64,000 nt of DNA from a virus (Duplodnaviria > Caudoviricetes): positions 6,524 through 70,523 of the IMG/VR virus record IMGVR_UViG_3300030372_001589; one strand, 5' to 3'. Made by a program: the position numbers and the translations under genes. Shown piece by piece: positions 4,325 to 46,497 of this stretch. The notes beneath the pieces were generated by a model. The model worked only from the letters and a program-made list of their open reading frames with translations. It had not been told where the DNA came from and searched no databases. The first letter of the stretch is position 1. Each line of letters starts with the position of its first letter.

Positions 4325-4714
4325 ATGGCGGCACTAAATCAAGATACAAGGTTAATTATGACTATTTTATTTGTTGGTACTGTTAGCGGTGCTAATGTAT
4401 ATTTTTATGCTAATTACGGAGTATCGTTCCCTTATACTACTTTATCCCATGCTGTATTATTTGGATTAATTACAGTCGGAGGAATTATGTGTTTAAAGGC
4501 TATCTTTGATTTATCATTAAATGATAAAATTGAGATAAGACTTTTAGATAGGCGCATTAATGCTTATTGGGAAAGAAGGGCTAGGGATGAGCAACAAAGA
4601 CAAAAACTCACAGAAACTATGAAACAGTATAATACTGTTACAATCGCACCAAGCACCCCAATGTATGAGTCAGAAAATACAATATCAAATGATTTCTTGG
4701 CTAAATTACAATGA
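4325..4714 (+). CDS. Membrane protein with two predicted TM helices and a charged coiled-coil tail (holin-like topology)
   Basis: Hydrophobic LIMTILFVGTVSGANVYFYA and AVLFGLITVGGIMCLKAIF, then RRARDEQQRQKL. Confidence 0.7.
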   Translation: MAALNQDTRLIMTILFVGTVSGANVYFYANYGVSFPYTTLSHAVLFGLITVGGIMCLKAIFDLSLNDKIEIRLLDRRINAYWERRARDEQQRQKLTETMKQYNTVTIAPSTPMYESENTISNDFLAKLQ

Positions 4715-4723
4715 GGTGTTTAG

Positions 4724-4942
4724 GTGGTTTTTGACTCCATAATGGGTTTTACTGAAACTGATTATGTCTATAATCAAAGTCGGGCGCATTCAGCCGACAT
4801 GTTTTTTACTAAAATGAGATATATTTTTTGGGGATTCTGTTCCTCATTATCTTGTTTTTTTATAGGGAACATATTAGGTGTGTTTGATATTAACATTATG
4901 GGTTGGATTATGGATAATTTGTGGCATTCATGGGAGATATAA
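4724..4942 (+). CDS. Small membrane protein
   Basis: 72 aa, GTG start after GAGGTG; hydrophobic YIFWGFCSSLSCFFIGNILGVF. Confidence 0.65.
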   Translation: MVFDSIMGFTETDYVYNQSRAHSADMFFTKMRYIFWGFCSSLSCFFIGNILGVFDINIMGWIMDNLWHSWEI

Positions 4943-4943
4943 T

Positions 4944-5606
4944 ATGTCAATGATTGCTGGTTTTGCGGTTGTAGTGACCGAAGCCTGTATATCTTTTTGG
5001 AAAAAAGTTCACGCTATTAATTTTGGAGTATATGGGGCGACAATGGTAGGAAAAACAACATTAAGTCACCAATTAAGAACAAGGGGAGAAGTACCGCAAA
5101 TTAATGAAAGAACGGTTGGATTACATAGACCTACAAGAAAAAGCATTAAATTACATGGTGATATGCACACTATTAGAAGTTCAGATATAGGGGGAGAAGC
5201 GATATATTGGAAAGAATGGGTTAAAGACATGAAATCTCGTAAACCTAAATATGTGATATTTATGATAGACCATAGACATTTAGATAGTGCGGCCAATTTA
5301 GACCATCAAGTAGCGTGGAAATTTTTAGTCGATATAATTACTAGTGATAGATGGCCTAATGGAAAAAGAAAAAAAGAAAAAGATTATCCTTTAGCAATAT
5401 CAATATGGGCTAATAAATATGATATTTGGGGAGAAAAACACAAATCTGAAAATCCAATAGATAAGCACCCAATCTTTGAACCTTTCAAATATGGTATGAG
5501 AAAATTAAATGATAAGGGAATACCTACTTTCAAATATATTGTATCTGCAAAATCTCAACCCGAAATGGTGTATAAAGGAATCACTACGATGATAAAAGAT
5601 TATTGA
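4944..5606 (+). CDS. Small Ras-superfamily GTPase, Arf/Sar1-like
   Basis: G1 GATMVGKT, G2 RTVG, G3 DIGGE, G4 ANKYD and G5 SAK all present with correct spacing; hydrophobic N-terminal helix; ATG 4944 (GGGAG SD) preferred over 4878. Confidence 0.9.
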   Translation: MSMIAGFAVVVTEACISFWKKVHAINFGVYGATMVGKTTLSHQLRTRGEVPQINERTVGLHRPTRKSIKLHGDMHTIRSSDIGGEAIYWKEWVKDMKSRKPKYVIFMIDHRHLDSAANLDHQVAWKFLVDIITSDRWPNGKRKKEKDYPLAISIWANKYDIWGEKHKSENPIDKHPIFEPFKYGMRKLNDKGIPTFKYIVSAKSQPEMVYKGITTMIKDY

Positions 5607-6298: not shown

Positions 6299-6952
6299 AT
6301 GGGTTTATTTGGAACAAGTAACGGGGCAGTAATGGGTGCGGTAAATGCACAGACAGACCAGCAATTCAAAAATGTTAGCAATTTACTTTCATTACAAGAA
6401 AATCATGTCGAAGAGTTTTTTCAGTATCACGGACAGCAATTTTTTTCAGCATTAGAACAATTAATGGAAGATGTAGTAGCAAGGTCAGTTAGTCAGATGT
6501 TAACACAATTAGTATTTGTTCAAGATTCAACAACAGGGACTATGAAACTACAATCTGGTTCTTTGGCAGAATTTGAAAGAATTACAAAAGAAAACATTGA
6601 TTTGGATTTAACAAGACTACTAGATTCAGCAATCAACACTGAAATAATTAATCAAAGAAAAATGGCAAAACAACAATACCTAGAATCTCAAGGCTTCTCC
6701 ACACCAACAGGACAGGTTACTGCTGGTGCGGCTATTGCTGGTGTTACAGGTAATATGCAACAATACAATCAAATGAATGGTGCTATGAATAACGGTTCGG
6801 GCTATCCTGTTCCTCCAAATGGAACAGACGGATATGGCCGACCATATTGGATTGATGCACAGGGCCAAATGTCATATGAACCGCCACAAGCAGGTTTAGG
6901 ATTAGGTTCAGCAATACAAAAAGGTGCGGCTTGGGCTAAATGGTTAATGTGA
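6299..6952 (+). CDS. Helical protein with Gln/Gly/Pro-rich C-terminal region and amphipathic termini
   Basis: 217 aa, GGAGG SD; ends LGSAIQKGAAWAKWLM. Confidence 0.7.
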   Translation: MGLFGTSNGAVMGAVNAQTDQQFKNVSNLLSLQENHVEEFFQYHGQQFFSALEQLMEDVVARSVSQMLTQLVFVQDSTTGTMKLQSGSLAEFERITKENIDLDLTRLLDSAINTEIINQRKMAKQQYLESQGFSTPTGQVTAGAAIAGVTGNMQQYNQMNGAMNNGSGYPVPPNGTDGYGRPYWIDAQGQMSYEPPQAGLGLGSAIQKGAAWAKWLM

Positions 6953-41181: not shown

Positions 41182-41462
41182 TATACTCTCTCCCAATTAC
41201 TAGGTACTTCTCCGCCATTCTTTCTTTTCCTTTCTATGTATTTATAGTCAGGATTTGCTTTCCAAAGCGTAGTCTTTGCTTGTTTTCTTGTTTTAACAAA
41301 GAGTTTATTCTTTGCTAAAATACCAGCAATTTGCTGTCGTGTGAAAGACCTACCTCTTAAAGCATGTCCGTTTTCTTTCAATCTATGTTGTATTTCTCCT
41401 ACACCCATTTCTGTATCTTGTAATATAGAAAACAGTGTATTAACTAAATTTTTATTTTTCAA
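41181..41462 (-). CDS. Winged-helix DNA-binding protein
   Basis: MGVGEIQHRL...TRQQIAGIL...LW wHTH pattern. Confidence 0.55.
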   Translation of the reverse strand: MKNKNLVNTLFSILQDTEMGVGEIQHRLKENGHALRGRSFTRQQIAGILAKNKLFVKTRKQAKTTLWKANPDYKYIERKRKNGGEVPSNWERV

Positions 41463-42310
41463 AAATATTCCTCCAATGTATTCACTTTTATTTTTATTTT
41501 TTCAGTTCTTTTTCTTCTTTTCTTTTCGCCCAAATTAAGAATCCTACAATCACCATTATTGAATTTGGACTTGGCGTATTTTACGAAATCCTCATCCTTT
41601 ATCATTTGAGCAAAGATTCTTTTATCTCCGTTCTTAATACCCAACCTTTTAATCAGTTTAGGTATCTTAGAAAATGTGCCTCTTTTTGGCATGTTGATTC
41701 TCCCACGAATGTTACCACTATGACAATAGGCTAACATCTCGTAAAAGTATTTTTGACTCCATCTTCGTTTAACCACACCATCAATAAATAATATTTTATT
41801 GGGATGAATGTTTTCAACAATCCATGATAGAATCTGCGTATCGGGTGGTTTATTATGCTTCAAAACTTCTGAAACAATATCTCTATCTGTTTCTTTTAGA
41901 TAGAACATTACTAAAGAATAGGTGTCCTTATCCAAAGCAAACGGTTCTTGACTATGGGGTGCTAATTCTTTGATTGAATCTGTTAAATAATTATGAGAAC
42001 CTGCTCGTTTAATCTGGCACTTGGCCTTGATTTCCTTTGGAACATCTTTCTCATTAATAGATGTCAAAACTATATCTCCCCTATACCTTCTAATAACATT
42101 AAGAATCGACTCTTTATTAGGTTTATAATGCACATCTTCAATGATGATTCCATTCTCTTTAGGCAACGAACCTAAGTCTTGGATATTCATTTCATTTGCA
42201 TACACAACTAAAGCATTAGGTAACATACCCTTTGCCTTTGTTGTTTTTCCTGTTCCTGTTTTTCCTGTTATTAGTATTGGTCTATTGTTATTTAAATTAC
42301 TCATACCCAT
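41459..42310 (-). CDS. RFC large-subunit-like AAA+ protein (shortened)
   Basis: GKTGTGKT, IIIEDVH; C-terminal PIP-like NTLEEYF; two genes from rfcS. Confidence 0.7.
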   Translation of the reverse strand: MGMSNLNNNRPILITGKTGTGKTTKAKGMLPNALVVYANEMNIQDLGSLPKENGIIIEDVHYKPNKESILNVIRRYRGDIVLTSINEKDVPKEIKAKCQIKRAGSHNYLTDSIKELAPHSQEPFALDKDTYSLVMFYLKETDRDIVSEVLKHNKPPDTQILSWIVENIHPNKILFIDGVVKRRWSQKYFYEMLAYCHSGNIRGRINMPKRGTFSKIPKLIKRLGIKNGDKRIFAQMIKDEDFVKYAKSKFNNGDCRILNLGEKKRRKRTEKIKIKVNTLEEYF

Positions 42311-42714
42311 TATATCAATCCCTTTATACGGAATAATTCTTCTAATCCTTCTAGTGTTAAGTGTTTATTATCTGCTACTATATTCACCGCTTCTCTAAAC
42401 GGAGGCCATAGTTCATTCTTATCAATAAGGTGAGGATGAATTAATACCATCAACTTATAGATATTTTTAATGCCTCCAATTTTTAATATTGGTGCTGGTC
42501 TTGATTTAGACTCTTGTTTAGAAATAGAGCAAGTTATTTCATGTTGAAGAAGGGTTCTTGAAACCGCTTCAACAAATTGTTCTCTCCCTCTTAGTTTTAC
42601 CATCAGCCTAACTCTATAACCTATGTTAGAGTTATCATCTCTTATGATTTGTATTTCTGGTTTTCCTACACTTAACAAAATTCCTATTAACATATCTTTA
42701 CTATACATATTCAT
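42310..42714 (-). CDS. Degenerate single-motif LAGLIDADG endonuclease-like protein
   Basis: YRVRLMVKL, LKIGG, IHPHLIDK, KHLTLEGLEEL pattern; first helix LIGILLSVG lacks the acidic residue. Confidence 0.65.
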   Translation of the reverse strand: MNMYSKDMLIGILLSVGKPEIQIIRDDNSNIGYRVRLMVKLRGREQFVEAVSRTLLQHEITCSISKQESKSRPAPILKIGGIKNIYKLMVLIHPHLIDKNELWPPFREAVNIVADNKHLTLEGLEELFRIKGLI

Positions 42715-43057
42715 TTGCCCCCATCATTCCAATGAAGTCATGTTTTAATCTTAAATATTCGAGTCCTTCGGAAATAGTTGAAGTTATTAACTCTTCAATA
42801 TCTGAATTATCTCCACGGAAAACTATGTTTATTTGTGTTCCCCTATAATGACCTAAAGCATTTGCTAATTCCTCATCAATTATTTCTTCAATAATTAACA
42901 TCATATGGTCGTGTCCTTTATGGAGTAACCTAAGAGTTAATCCTTGCTGAATCATCAACAAATCTCTATTATCTATTTCTCCATAAACAAGATAAGTATA
43001 AGAAGTAACCCCTCCATACTCATTTATCCATTCTTGGATATGTTCATCTTGAAGCAC
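42701..43057 (-). CDS. Hypothetical protein
   Basis: GTG start with AGGTGA SD. Confidence 0.6.
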   Translation of the reverse strand: MLQDEHIQEWINEYGGVTSYTYLVYGEIDNRDLLMIQQGLTLRLLHKGHDHMMLIIEEIIDEELANALGHYRGTQINIVFRGDNSDIEELITSTISEGLEYLRLKHDFIGMMGANEYV

Positions 43058-43061
43058 AAAA

Positions 43062-43508
43062 TCACCTTTCTTTTACATAATCTTCCTGTGAAGGCCAATG
43101 CCCGTTAGGTTCTTGGGTATGGCTTAACTCCCACCAATACAAATGTTGTGCTGAAATCCTTTGATGGTTTTTAGCATTAGCATTGTTTTCAGCCCACACT
43201 ACCATATCAGTAACAGCACCCTCAAGCCATTCGGATAATAGACTTACAAAAGACCTACTAACAGGCATTTCCGTGCTATTGTTAATCAGTTGTTTAAGAC
43301 TGACTCTTGAAGAATATTTCTTCTTCACCGGCTGTTTAGGTTCAATAAACTCACCTTCTTCTGTAAAGTATGGAACAAGGTGTTGAAGCATCTTTCTTGG
43401 CCTACCCTGTTCGTGTAGGACATTCTTCAAATAAGCATAGCCTTCTTTCACTTCAATACAAGTATAGGTTTCTAAATCAATAACTGTCAATTGTCCTTTT
43501 TGTATCAT
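43062..43508 (-). CDS. Protein with C-terminal archaeal histone-fold-like domain
   Basis: aa ~67-125 (VSLKQLI...PVSRSFVSLLSEWLEG...AENNA...QRISAQHL) aligns by eye with HMf-type histones. Confidence 0.65.
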   Translation of the reverse strand: MIQKGQLTVIDLETYTCIEVKEGYAYLKNVLHEQGRPRKMLQHLVPYFTEEGEFIEPKQPVKKKYSSRVSLKQLINNSTEMPVSRSFVSLLSEWLEGAVTDMVVWAENNANAKNHQRISAQHLYWWELSHTQEPNGHWPSQEDYVKER

Positions 43509-44008
43509 TCTGGTTCCTCCATCTGTGTTTGTTTTAACAAATTCAAAATCATTTTAGGGTCTGCACCGTTTTCTAATTGAATAATTGCCATGTTTACAAA
43601 TGTTTTATGGCGAACAACTTCAGCGTATTCCTTTTCTGTTTCTTTCATTTTTTTATGAAATGCTTGCAAATCTTGGTTCAAAACAAATCCCGCTTCTTTA
43701 CTGATTTTTTTATCAATATGGATTCTTGAAGCCTCTGAAAGTCTTGGTAATTTAAGTGTTTGAATATCATATAATCTATGATGTAACAAACGCAGTTTTT
43801 TAATAGAAATTATCATACGCTTTTTGTATAATTCTAACATTCTTTCTGTTTGCTTTTGGTTCAGATTTTTTATCAAAAAGACATTACCCTTTTCATCTGC
43901 AATCAATTGCTCGATAGGCATAGCGTGATTTCTTTTTTTTGCTATCCTTTCTTCTTCTTCGGCTGTTTCCTTAATTTCATTATCATCATATACTATTGGA
44001 CTTTTCAT
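43505..44008 (-). CDS. Hypothetical helical protein
   Basis: 167 aa, ATGA overlaps. Confidence 0.6.
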   Translation of the reverse strand: MKSPIVYDDNEIKETAEEEERIAKKRNHAMPIEQLIADEKGNVFLIKNLNQKQTERMLELYKKRMIISIKKLRLLHHRLYDIQTLKLPRLSEASRIHIDKKISKEAGFVLNQDLQAFHKKMKETEKEYAEVVRHKTFVNMAIIQLENGADPKMILNLLKQTQMEEPE

Positions 44009-45543
44009 ATTATCATCTCTATCATATCATCTAAGGTATTAATATCCGCAACAAATTTATCATCACGAATACGGACACATCTAGGAAATCTTAATCCATA
44101 GTTACCTTCTGCATCTTGTGTTATTAAATCAGCAGTTACTTCTAAAACCACTCTAGGTAAGAAGTGATAAGTACCGTTTTCGTGATTATCAACTTGTCTT
44201 CTTAATTCATTAGTTAACCTAACTAATTGACTATCGCTAAAACCTGTACCGACAGAACCTAAATTAACATAGCCATCATTTTCAGTCCTTACACCTATTC
44301 CAAAAGTACCGAATACATTCGCTCTTTTGCCTTCGCCATATTTAGCAGTTAGAACAACCACATCTAAATTAATTCTAGGTGGCTTATATTTAGCCCAACC
44401 TACGCTTCTTTTACCTGCTTCATAAGGTAAAGAAGCATCCTTAACTATAATACCTTCAAAGCCGTCATTAATTGCTCTGCTGTAAAAGGCAAGAGCATCA
44501 ACGCATTCATCCGGCATTCTATGTGCTTGATTAGGTAATCCTTTGAATTTGTCAAGTCTATCTCTATAAGATAATTCCATGATAGTTTCACCATTAAACT
44601 TTAGACAATCAAAAATCACCCATTCAACAGGAACCTTTTCTATCGCTTCTGCATGGTTTTTAGAATGAACTCTTGTACCCATCTTCTTGTGTTCTGCTGG
44701 CGTACCATCTTCATTAATAGGATATATTTCACCATCTAGTATAACATTAGGTACATCATATTCTCTAACAATATCCGCTACATCAGAAAACTGCGGAGTA
44801 ACTACATTACCTTTACGATTAAAGATAATCACACTATCTCCTTCTTTATGGATTTGATAACGATTACCGTCATACTTGTAGTCCACTATTTTATCAAGAG
44901 GCCATTTATTCATAGGCAGGTCTTTTGCTAACATAGGTGCTACAAAAGAACCATGTTCAAGATTCATAGGTGGTTCACTGTTAGATTCATAATACCGTGC
45001 AACATTGGAAATAGAATTAAAGTTACAATGCTTTTTAACATCTGATAATTTCTTATTGTAATGTTTCGCTAATATCTTCTTAACTACTCCACTATTAATC
45101 CCGTTGCGTGGTGTTTTTAACCAATAGCGAATAAACCATCGGCATTCTAAGGCACTCATGTTTATCATGGCCTGTTGTATTGTCTTAAATGAATCAGTGT
45201 TAATCCCGTTACAGTCCATAGAAAGTAGCCGCAAGACGCTTGCAAGCGGCGTTTCTTCTCTAGTTTGTGCTGATATATCTAAATAATAAATAGCATCTCC
45301 TAAATCATCATGCGCTTTGTATTCGCTTTCTATCTCATCTTCAAAAACATTGTATATTTTAGCCATCCACTTCTTAGCCCTTGAAAGCCCTATGTTATTA
45401 TTAGGATATTCTTTGGCTAGGATAGAAAATAATGCTTGTTTATTCTTGAAGGTTCCCACTTGTTCCGTAATCATAGATACCTGTTTCGTTGGTGTTTCCC
45501 TGTCGGTGCTTTCTAATAATCTCGCTAATCTGCTCATTGTCAT
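44005..45543 (-). CDS. lig: ATP-dependent DNA ligase
   Basis: KYDG, LDGE, FDCL, EGIIVK, WAKYKP motifs plus N-terminal DBD and OB domain. Confidence 0.95.
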   Translation of the reverse strand: MTMSRLARLLESTDRETPTKQVSMITEQVGTFKNKQALFSILAKEYPNNNIGLSRAKKWMAKIYNVFEDEIESEYKAHDDLGDAIYYLDISAQTREETPLASVLRLLSMDCNGINTDSFKTIQQAMINMSALECRWFIRYWLKTPRNGINSGVVKKILAKHYNKKLSDVKKHCNFNSISNVARYYESNSEPPMNLEHGSFVAPMLAKDLPMNKWPLDKIVDYKYDGNRYQIHKEGDSVIIFNRKGNVVTPQFSDVADIVREYDVPNVILDGEIYPINEDGTPAEHKKMGTRVHSKNHAEAIEKVPVEWVIFDCLKFNGETIMELSYRDRLDKFKGLPNQAHRMPDECVDALAFYSRAINDGFEGIIVKDASLPYEAGKRSVGWAKYKPPRINLDVVVLTAKYGEGKRANVFGTFGIGVRTENDGYVNLGSVGTGFSDSQLVRLTNELRRQVDNHENGTYHFLPRVVLEVTADLITQDAEGNYGLRFPRCVRIRDDKFVADINTLDDMIEMII

Positions 45544-45673
45544 TTAAAATCATCTCTATATTTGTATTTACTGTAATAACCAATTCTTTTAGAAGGTGGC
45601 TAAGTTTACCTTCATGCTTTTCAGCATATTTCCACATGGCTTTTGATAAATAAATCCATTCACTCTTCTTCAT
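45440..45673 (-). CDS. Hypothetical protein
   Basis: Operon context; long 3' overlap with ligase. Confidence 0.45.
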   Translation of the reverse strand: MKKSEWIYLSKAMWKYAEKHEGKLSHLLKELVITVNTNIEMILNDNEQISEIIRKHRQGNTNETGIYDYGTSGNLQE

Positions 45674-46028
45674 CAGAAGCCGCCCCTTGGTCTATGCTAT
45701 TCATCAGCCTAACATAATTAATCATCATAGTCTGCATTACTGCTGACTCTTCGTTTTTATTCTGTTCCATCAAACGATGTAGCATGTGAATCATAGAGGC
45801 TTGGCTAATAGCAGGTGCTAATCTAGCCAAGTTATCTGAATGAAACATTTCCCAATACATCACAAAAGACGCTCTTGGTAAAAACATTCCATTTCTAACT
45901 ACTGCATAATTATCCTCAAAGTGGGATAATGCCGCAGGGTTTTTCTTAATCTTCTTCTTCATGGCTTTCGCCCATTCCACAAATCTTTTATCGTTTGTTA
46001 CATCTAAAAATATTTTATTCATATTCAT
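45660..46028 (-). CDS. Hypothetical protein
   Basis: 122 aa, ATGA overlap. Confidence 0.6.
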   Translation of the reverse strand: MNMNKIFLDVTNDKRFVEWAKAMKKKIKKNPAALSHFEDNYAVVRNGMFLPRASFVMYWEMFHSDNLARLAPAISQASMIHMLHRLMEQNKNEESAVMQTMMINYVRLMNSIDQGAASDEEE

Positions 46029-46306
46029 TCTTCTTCATCTCCAAATAATTTATTCAAAAATAATAATTTTAACATATGTCCTGAAAACTTACTCCAAGAT
46101 TTATCAATATGTTCTTTTGTCACTCTTGAACCTCTCCCTTCTCCTGCGCCCACCGGCATTTCTAATTCTATAAAAGCAGACCATAAATCAATCAATTCAG
46201 CAGTATATCTCCTATGGCGGTCTAAAGCCCCCATTTCAAATTGTCTATGTGGGTTTGCCCTTCTAACGCTAGCCTTTGTTTGTACTTCACTAGTTCTAAA
46301 TCTCAT
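46025..46306 (-). CDS. Hypothetical protein
   Basis: 93 aa, ATGA overlap. Confidence 0.55.
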   Translation of the reverse strand: MRFRTSEVQTKASVRRANPHRQFEMGALDRHRRYTAELIDLWSAFIELEMPVGAGEGRGSRVTKEHIDKSWSKFSGHMLKLLFLNKLFGDEEE

Positions 46307-46497
46307 TCTAATTCCCTCTTTAATATATTTAATAATGTCTTTGCTTCGTCTATATTTAGACGAATGCCTTTTGTTGGCTTGTTGTTTTTATGCCATCTAA
46401 TATCCATGACTTCTATATTCCAATAGATGCCTCTTTTAACAAGGACTTCATCGTTAGCATTTCTAACGATTCTTCCTTTTATTTCCATTTCACTCAC
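46303..46497 (-). CDS. PC4/p15-like ssDNA-binding protein
   Basis: VMDIRW...PTKGIRL..DEAKTL matches PC4 DIR...KGIsL. Confidence 0.75.
   Translation of the reverse strand: MSEMEIKGRIVRNANDEVLVKRGIYWNIEVMDIRWHKNNKPTKGIRLNIDEAKTLLNILKRELE

Follow-up and report, generated by a model that had tools for sequence, protein, structure and literature searches.

We sought to establish what kind of protein is encoded by a small gene at positions 43062-43508 (minus strand) of a 64,000-nucleotide stretch of tailed-virus DNA, positions 6,524 to 70,523 of IMG/VR record IMGVR_UViG_3300030372_001589 (hereafter the window), and whether such a protein could act on viral DNA in the way that histones do. The open reading frame (ORF) starts with ATG and specifies 148 amino acids (aa). 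Its product very probably combines an N-terminal KOW-like beta-barrel with a histone fold. The parts of the gene to which the argument refers are as follows.

43062-43508, minus strand: whole ORF, encoding the predicted KOW-like barrel, basic linker, histone fold and aromatic C-terminal tail (ORF list, homologues, substitution rates, AlphaFold2 model)
43516-43520, minus strand: GGAGG Shine-Dalgarno motif 7 nt 5' of the ATG, within the 3' end of the upstream ORF (sequence)
43338-43508, minus strand: predicted SH3-like beta-barrel of KOW/Tudor/chromo type, residues 1-57 (AlphaFold2 strands, VIA-align)
43392-43406, minus strand: GRPRK loop between strands 3 and 4, residues 35-39 (conservation; modelled as a loop)
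43302-43337, minus strand: basic linker PKQPVKKKYSSR, residues 58-69, net charge +5 here (family median +3)
43143-43301, minus strand: predicted histone fold, residues 70-122, with alpha1 (71-78), L1 (xVS), alpha2 (85-112), L2 (NHQRIS) and the first turn of alpha3 (HMMER, Foldseek)
43065-43142, minus strand: truncated alpha3, then an aromatic extension [YF]-W-x-E...G-[YH]-W-P...Y and a terminal helix 139-147, residues 123-148 (conservation, DSSP)

The ORF is a real protein-coding gene under strong purifying selection, since comparison with a 93%-identical copy in a related locus (L010) gave a ratio of non-synonymous to synonymous substitution rates (dN/dS) of 0.05 at dS 0.73. There is a 4-nt overlap between its start and the stop of the ORF before it, and in 64 of 65 related loci the start is preceded by a Shine-Dalgarno-like motif. 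Eight close homologues of the protein were found, and an exhaustive HMMER search, which covered 1.84 billion cluster representatives, returned 37 relatives. Many contigs from marine metagenomes encode the identical protein or close relatives of it, every one annotated as 'hypothetical protein'. Three 'short' relatives of 99-110 aa (P0031, P0035 and P0036) appear to be full-length genes whose calls were truncated, and a dedicated search for stand-alone shorter relatives yielded one fragment only.

Evidence for the histone fold and the barrel

Searches with the single protein sequence returned no match in the PDB (phmmer), nothing useful in PHROGs and, in Pfam, a sub-threshold match to DUF1931, a family of the histone clan (E 0.022). 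The histone signal thus appears with family profiles only. A profile of 8 sequences reached the histone 8bdk in the PDB at E 0.021, and a profile of 29 family sequences (A2) matched the same entry, the archaeal histone MJ1647, at E 1.7e-8, aligning query residues 70-130 with residues 5-65 without gaps. After 8bdk, about 60 further matches were listed for A2, nearly all of them histone-fold chains aligned to query residues ~70-125; among the matches listed were chains of H2B, H2A, NF-YB, NC2, HMfA/B, HPhA, HBb and giant-virus histones. An independent alignment of 62 sequences from IMG/VR loci also returned 8bdk (E 5e-6), and PF00808 was matched individually by 12 of the 29 family members, with a best E-value of 5.2e-5.

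Structure prediction led to the same fold. The AlphaFold2 model built with A2 had a mean predicted local distance difference test (pLDDT) score of 89.6, rising to 92-96 across alpha1-alpha2 and lowest in the linker (75 for the block 61-70). Its helices span residues 71-78, 85-112 and 139-147, and DSSP assigned alpha3 as a turn of three residues at 120-122. This is the three-helix histone architecture of a short helix, a loop, a central helix of ~28 aa, a second loop and a rudimentary alpha3. Foldseek superimposed the model on 8bdk_A with a root-mean-square deviation (rmsd) of 1.3 A over 55 aa and on CHRAC 2bym_B with 1.0 A over 54 aa, at probabilities of 0.99-1.00 for 8bdk_A, 2bym_B, HBb and HTkC, and VIA-align gave Z 5.0-5.8 to many histone-fold chains. 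For a second model, of residues 58-148 alone, the best 50 Foldseek matches were all histone-fold chains. The Foldseek E-values of the whole model were weak (best 0.02-0.03, PDB and BFVD), which we attributed to the chain being single, small and extended; the statistically strong evidence is the profile of sequences. Foldseek found no two-domain look-alike of the whole model in BFVD. The modelled arrangement of the two domains is uncertain, because confidence in the tail drops when the barrel is left out and the predicted template-modelling score (pTM) is 0.54. Judged by profiles and models, the segment 70-125 adopts a histone fold and shares its ancestry with the histones of archaea and eukaryotes.

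The four or five strands of the N-terminal domain (7-10, 13-21, 24-29 and 38-41 in the AlphaFold2 model, within residues 1-57) form a barrel for which VIA-align gave Spt5 KOW5 as the best match (5xog_W, Z 6.4, rmsd 2.6 A over 53 aa). Human KOW6-7 (5ohq_A) followed at rank 6 with Z 5.9 and M. jannaschii Spt5 (4zn3) with Z 5.1; Tudor, chromo, PWWP and other SH3-like barrels scored Z 4.8-5.3, and values of Z below 8 may mean no more than a common fold. Foldseek also listed the N-domains of eIF5A and EF-P. By sequence, the window protein had no Pfam match to a KOW motif at E <=1, and KOW was absent from the 17 Pfam families listed for the 29 family members. The N-terminal domain is therefore best described, from its model, as KOW-like by fold only. 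Between strands 3 and 4 lies a conserved G-R-P-[KR] loop, with G in 95%, R in 92%, P in 82% and K/R in 88% of 85 unique family sequences, the set to which all conservation figures below refer. The loop resembles the core of an AT-hook, and the viral genome has a GC content of 34.3%; a DNA contact at this loop is our inference from the motif. The linker that follows aligns with the basic stretch preceding alpha1 of H2B (HMMER).

Much of this had been anticipated in the original prediction, which was made from the sequence of the window and placed a histone fold at residues ~67-125. Helix 1, the xVS loop (S84, 99%), the long helix 2 and the ensuing R-I-x-A-x-H-L are all present, and the predicted structure bore out the assignment. 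The beta-rich segment of ~60 aa that it described corresponds to the modelled barrel strands, its basic linker KQPVKKK was found as described, and the altered R-D clamp that it pointed out proved to be family-wide, as detailed in the next section.

The architecture has a counterpart in the literature. In an IMG/VR survey, Liu et al. (hLife 2025, PMC13681535; bioRxiv 10.1101/2024.12.06.627149) named a class in Caudoviricetes 'viral KOW histone-fold proteins' (VKHFP/VKH); its description is purely computational and assigns no function (PMC13681535). Both the class and the window protein have a histone fold, a long loop and a KOW-like barrel, and both come from IMG/VR contigs of tailed viruses. 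The VKHFP barrel was reported to be structurally like Spt5 KOW6 (5OHQ) without sequence homology to NusG (PMC13681535); likewise, the barrel studied here is a structural rather than a sequence relative of NusG/Spt5 KOW domains and matched the 5ohq entry named there. The modelled window protein thus matches the VKHFP class, its membership being judged by architecture.

Residue signature and proposed mode of action

If the protein wrapped DNA like a nucleosomal histone, then the residues that serve wrapping should be conserved in the family. We compared positions through an alignment to HMfB-type histones computed here, with equivalent residues given in HMfB numbering. Several core features are retained. 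The V-S of L1 (HMfB V20-S21) is present, and so is the alpha2 pattern A106/A110/G114 (HMfB A43/A47/G51; 96%, 100% and 82%). Alpha2 has the full nucleosomal length of 28 aa, aligns without gaps to histones of nucleosomal length and carries a hydrophobic stripe that is conserved in the family. Other positions are changed. Position 82, equivalent to the L1 minor-groove arginine (HMfB R19), is Q, P, T, S, V or K, with arginine in 0 of 85 and lysine in 1 of 85 sequences. Position 109, equivalent to L46 of the four-helix bundle, is N in 85% and S in 12%, and the equivalent of L62 is W in 93%. The R-D clamp of HMfB (R52/T54/D59, in the motif R-x-T-x-x-x-x-D) is not found across the family: position 115 (R52) is D in 49%, H in 28%, E in 8% and K in 6%; position 117 (T54) is R in 76%, T in 13% and K in 8%; and position 122 (D59) is H in 94% and D in 6%.

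The five entries with D122 (full-length proteins of L048, L068, L074 and L081 and the fragment P0031) always carry it within G-[GA]-[KR]-T-I-x-A-x-D, which reads as the canonical histone motif minus its arginine. Since this sub-lineage retains that motif, the family looks derived from an ordinary histone, in which the R-D clamp would later have been swapped to acid/His...His. The L2-alpha3 motif of the family, R-I-[TS]-[AP]-x-H-[LFI], aligns with KRITPRH of H2A.Z, and the basic stretch with the arginine-less L1 aligns with H2B (both HMMER). The tail is strongly conserved at [YF]124, W125 (93%), E127 (88%), G136 (95%), W138 (92%) and Y144 (93%); inspected by eye, it contains no evident PIP-box (PCNA-binding) motif. 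Candidate DNA contacts, named from conservation, are K/R76 (93%), R/K113 (84%), R/K117 (84%), the linker and G-R-P-[KR]. The family has a median pI of 6.4, with a net charge of -2 on the histone-fold domain and +3 on the linker. By its residues and its model the protein is not a canonical histone. The rudimentary alpha3, the asparagine at the four-helix-bundle position and the missing L1 arginine argue against polymerisation of the nucleosome or hypernucleosome kind.

Comparison with solved and described histones places these departures in context. The best match of the histone-fold domain in both sequence and structure is MJ1647, a DNA-bridging histone of HmvA type from Methanococcales (8bdk; PMC10516927). 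Both proteins have a single histone fold with a C-terminal extension of ~25-30 aa, but MJ1647 retains G-R-K-T-I-K-A-R-D and lacks a barrel at its N-terminus. In MJ1647 the extension forms a tetramerisation module of two helices, for which DNA bridging was shown (Ofer et al., Commun Biol 2023, PMC10516927). The viral tail cannot be aligned with this module; it is rich in aromatic residues and for the most part not helical. The alpha3-truncated histones (HBb/Bd0055, face-to-face and 'phage' types; Schwab et al., Nat Commun 2024, PMC11390915) likewise have an alpha3 of 3-4 residues, HBb chains are among the best structural matches (9f0e_A, and 8cmp_A with Z 5.0), and for these histones as for the viral protein bending or bridging is expected rather than wrapping. 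However, alpha2 of the alpha3-truncated families is 4-5 residues shorter than the 28 aa seen here, so the viral protein falls outside the definition of that class. The 'phage histones' are likewise of marine tailed-virus metagenomic origin and have no RxTxxxxD motif (PMC11390915); unlike the viral protein, they have an N-terminal fold, a C-terminal tetramerisation helix and no beta-barrel.

Likeness to HMfA/HMfB (PF00808) extends over the ungapped alpha1-L1-alpha2-L2 segment, with L1 V-S, the alpha2 A...A..G pattern and, in the sub-lineage, K-T-I-x-A-x-D; the differences are the missing L1 arginine and R-D clamp, the asparagine at the L46 position, the truncated alpha3, the barrel, the tail and the neutral charge. 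Likeness to H2B (basic stretch before alpha1, L1 without arginine) and to H2A.Z (L2-alpha3 motif) is at the level of sequence motifs and may be convergent. In contrast to H2A and H2B, the viral protein comes from a single gene, so that it is presumably a homodimer, and it has no modification-site tails, docking domain or alphaC helix. The family can be seen as a case from nature in which wrapping was abandoned and the histone fold remodelled, with the L1 arginine lost, the clamp changed to D/E/H...H, an aromatic tail substituted for alpha3 and an SH3-like barrel added.

We tentatively favor, with confidence a little short of even, a homodimeric non-wrapping DNA-binding protein that acts on viral DNA during replication and transcription and uses the barrel as a second contact module. 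The histone fold would dimerise by the usual handshake. A homodimer is suggested because there is one detectable copy in the genome and because the broad hydrophobic stripe on alpha2 is typical of histone-fold dimers; in the 70.5-kb record, hidden Markov models of the histone-fold and barrel families matched only the gene itself, and PF00808 matched nothing at E <=1. In each dimer the contacts with double-stranded DNA would be made by the H2A-like L2 arginine R117 (R-I-[TS]-[AP]-x-H) and by the basic residues preceding alpha1, and the barrel may add a further contact through its G-R-P-K loop. Such dimers would not polymerise into nucleosome- or hypernucleosome-like superhelices, and the AT-rich viral DNA would be bent, coated or bridged, more probably than wrapped, during replication and transcription. 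The KOW-like barrel would supply a second nucleic-acid or protein contact.

Several observations weigh against a DNA-binding role. DNA-packaging histones are typically basic, whereas this family is near-neutral to slightly acidic in charge. No member has the L1 arginine, which of all histone-DNA contacts is the most universal, and other residues stand in place of the R-D clamp by which L2 is fixed. The AT-hook-like reading of the G-R-P-K loop is one of motif resemblance only. The pLDDT of the tail fell from ~90 to 62-80 when the barrel was omitted, in models that used different alignments. Finally, many histone-fold proteins, among them TAFs, NF-Y, CENP-S/X and Dpb3/4, serve mainly as protein-protein modules.

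In tailed viruses it is naked DNA that the terminase packages. We regard it as very improbable that the protein is a true packaging histone of the kind known from Marseilleviridae, which would form nucleosome-like particles and so condense the viral genome, be it in the cell or in the virion. The protein is a histone-fold protein of a double-stranded DNA virus, and the full-length alpha2, ungapped against HMfB-type histones, would suit such a role; yet it has neither the L1 arginine nor the R-D clamp, neither the four-helix-bundle residues nor a full alpha3, and its charge is near-neutral. The gene sits in the replication block rather than in the structural block, and the tail and capsid genes are of tailed-virus type (Phage_tube_2; Philosof et al., PMC5434244). 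A packaging histone of the virion was rejected on its residue features and the position of its gene.

An action on the host chromosome, in which the viral protein would heterodimerise or compete with host histone-fold or nucleoid proteins and so remodel or shut down that chromosome, likewise seems improbable. Once incorporated, the protein would stop polymerisation through its polar four-helix-bundle residue and its truncated alpha3, and the gene diverges faster than its neighbors (38-45% identity, versus 59-65% for ligase and 67-77% for RFC), as expected of a host-interaction protein. However, the gene lies in a replication operon and not among early host-takeover genes, and MJ1647, its closest solved relative, showed no cross-oligomerisation with canonical histones (PMC10516927). 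Moreover, Poseidoniales, the proposed hosts, are reported in two surveys, on which our statements about host chromatin rest, to have no nucleosomal singlets and only an unusual acidic double or quadruplet histone-fold protein that may not bind DNA (PMC13260811; PMC11390915 supplement). With no nucleosomal singlets, no hypernucleosome is expected in such hosts and there is probably none to cap, and mimicry of host histones is an unlikely reason for the virus to keep the fold. Of the two roles offered in the original prediction, capping of host hypernucleosomes was left unsupported by these surveys, and histone-like compaction of viral DNA found no support in the residue features and the median pI described above.

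Replication operon and distribution in viruses

The window is a magrovirus-type genome, from an abundant virus of ocean archaea, with genes for an ATP-dependent ligase, a thermosome-like chaperonin, RFC, PolB, RNR, a UvrD-like helicase and a tail tube protein that matches Phage_tube_2, a gene set that agrees with the description of magroviruses by Philosof et al. (PMC5434244). The IMG/VR record is 70.5 kb long and ~76% complete. The genes around the histone-fold gene are listed below.

44005-45543, minus strand: ATP-dependent DNA ligase of the replication module, first of a string of overlapping genes (Pfam DNA_ligase_A_M, 1.5e-35)
43505-44008, minus strand: helical ORF of 167 aa that overlaps the ligase stop and the histone-fold gene start (ORF list; same position in related viruses)
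42701-43057, minus strand: conserved ORF of 118 aa (ORF118), 4 nt past the histone-fold gene stop (no Pfam match)
42310-42714, minus strand: ORF of 134 aa (ORF134; PHROG 12980 'HNH endonuclease', E 1.6e-6)
41459-42310, minus strand: ORF of 283 aa (ORF283) with an N-terminal P-loop (AAA/STAND matches weak only)

The operon runs from ligase through the helical ORF, the histone-fold gene, ORF118, ORF134 and the P-loop ATPase to RFC, and from ligase to ORF402 the genes overlap or nearly abut on one strand. Among 88 related loci found by tblastn, ligase lies upstream in 82, and ORF134, ORF283 and RFC lie downstream in 88, 87 and 85, respectively. At least 100 IMG/VR contigs encode the KOW-histone-fold protein, and the ESM Atlas neighbors of the protein are all viral. 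No relative was confirmed in 185,579 prokaryote species genomes, a scan whose patterns came from a close alignment (A1), so that very distant relatives could escape it. The gene is a fixed, virus-only member of the magrovirus replication operon.

The invariable place of the gene beside ligase, RFC and PolB can also be read in favor of a histone fold that serves mainly as a protein-protein module, either as a replisome accessory subunit (compare Dpb3-Dpb4/POLE3-POLE4 and MHF) or as a transcription factor comparable to NF-Y, NC2 or TAFs. The KOW-like barrel would then dock a polymerase, a clamp, RNA polymerase or RNA, and the protein might pair with a second small viral histone-fold protein. The neutral charge and the loss of the L1 arginine and the R-D clamp fit such a module, as do the structural neighbors CHRAC (2bym_B, 1.0 A), MHF (4dra, 7da0) and Dpb4-Dpb3 (5y27_B, Z 5.5). 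The KOW domains of Spt5/NusG are partner-docking modules, and Liu et al. (PMC13681535) raise the same reading for their class. On the other hand, histone folds are all structurally alike, which makes similarity to CHRAC, MHF or Dpb4 non-specific, and several DNA-facing basic positions and the basic linker are conserved. We consider this explanation unlikely on balance, although it carries appreciable weight.

For the VKHFP class, the operon adds what the published survey did not contain. That paper (PMC13681535) gives no host, virus group, gene context or residue-level detail, and the words magrovirus and Poseidoniales are absent from it. New with respect to it are the core place of the gene in a replication operon, the virus-only distribution, the loss of the L1 arginine and the swapped clamp, together with the H2A-like L2, the truncated alpha3 with its aromatic tail and the GRPK loop. 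The class thereby gains a biological setting, that is a virus group, a likely host, an operon and a residue signature, and becomes testable. The magrovirus literature that we searched does not mention histones, and the list of Talbert et al. (PMC9145170) includes no viruses of prokaryotes.

The genes adjoining the histone-fold gene vary among lineages. A helical ORF of 120-180 aa often stands between ligase and the histone-fold gene in related loci; it is variable in length and diverges fast, and a C-terminal motif hydrophobic-x-A-I-L-[EKR]-Q is common across lineages (for example L004:3061-3603 and L029:4630-5001). Some lineages lack this ORF, and there ligase abuts the histone-fold gene. The ligase stop abuts or overlaps the histone-fold gene start in the sub-lineage formed by L048, L061, L064, L068, L074, L076, L081, L082 and L086, and in the four of these loci that were inspected (L048, L068, L074 and L081) the protein retains the more canonical K-T-I-x-A-x-D. 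This ligase-abutting form may be the least derived of the family. Since ORF134 occupies the same position in all 88 related loci, it looks more like a fixed nuclease of the replication module than a mobile homing endonuclease. ORF283 could be a second clamp-loader-like or initiator-like ATPase.

The PC4-adjacent region and a possible second histone-fold gene

Two further genes of the window bear on a possible partner of the KOW-histone-fold protein.

46303-46497, minus strand: PC4-like gene of 64 aa (Pfam PC4, E 0.016)
46025-46306, minus strand: conserved ORF of 93 aa (ORF93), next after the PC4-like gene (present in 53 related loci)

In a divergent magrovirus (L006), whose genes in the PC4 region lie at 4452-4676, 4681-4926 and 4919-5179, an extra gene of 81 aa (4681-4926) stands directly behind the PC4-like gene. 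Its product matched PF00808 at E 8.9e-4, and 8 of its 8 matches in the PDB were NF-YB chains. From these sequence matches, the gene is a second, small histone-fold gene in a virus that also encodes the KOW-histone-fold gene. At least one magrovirus lineage therefore possesses the kind of small histone-fold protein with which a replisome or transcription subunit could pair, but the gene at the equivalent position in the window, ORF93, is without a significant histone signal. ORF93 had no profile match in the PDB, and hhalign against the histone-fold family gave a probability of 1.3% (E 0.042). It is marginally similar to the 81-aa protein via L078 (E 0.022), and its ESM Atlas model has a pLDDT of 0.48. 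ORF93 may be a diverged histone-fold relative and a partner of the KOW-histone-fold protein. ORF118 and the helical ORF upstream of the histone-fold gene, considered as histone-fold partners, gave no Pfam signal.

A more far-reaching form of the non-wrapping reading would be a minimal viral chromatin system, carried in the replication operon by viruses of hosts without nucleosomal histones, in which the KOW-histone-fold protein, alone or with a small PC4-adjacent histone-fold protein, organises replicating AT-rich DNA and tethers it through the barrel to the viral replisome or to the host transcription machinery. We hold this to be doubtful, with a low probability. If true, it would amount to a virus-specific, non-nucleosomal, histone-based factor of replication or transcription without a cellular counterpart.

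Two minor observations concern gene models and gene junctions in these viruses. Three very long database entries, P0037 (1894 aa), P0039 (1370 aa) and P0044 (1025 aa), align with the query piecemeal, in 5-8 separate stretches; probably these are not true fusions but magrovirus DNA across which genes were mis-called or read through. Acidic C-termini recur in the operon: the ORF upstream of the histone-fold gene ends in MEEPE, and the ORFs at 46025-46306 and 45660-46028 both end in DEEE. At the one junction examined (43505-43520), the upstream ORF runs, near its 3' end, through the GGAGG that serves the following, overlapping gene, and there it reads Glu codons. If the other junctions between 39037 and 46900 are alike, the acidic tails of the operon ORFs, instead of being functional, may be a by-product of translational coupling.

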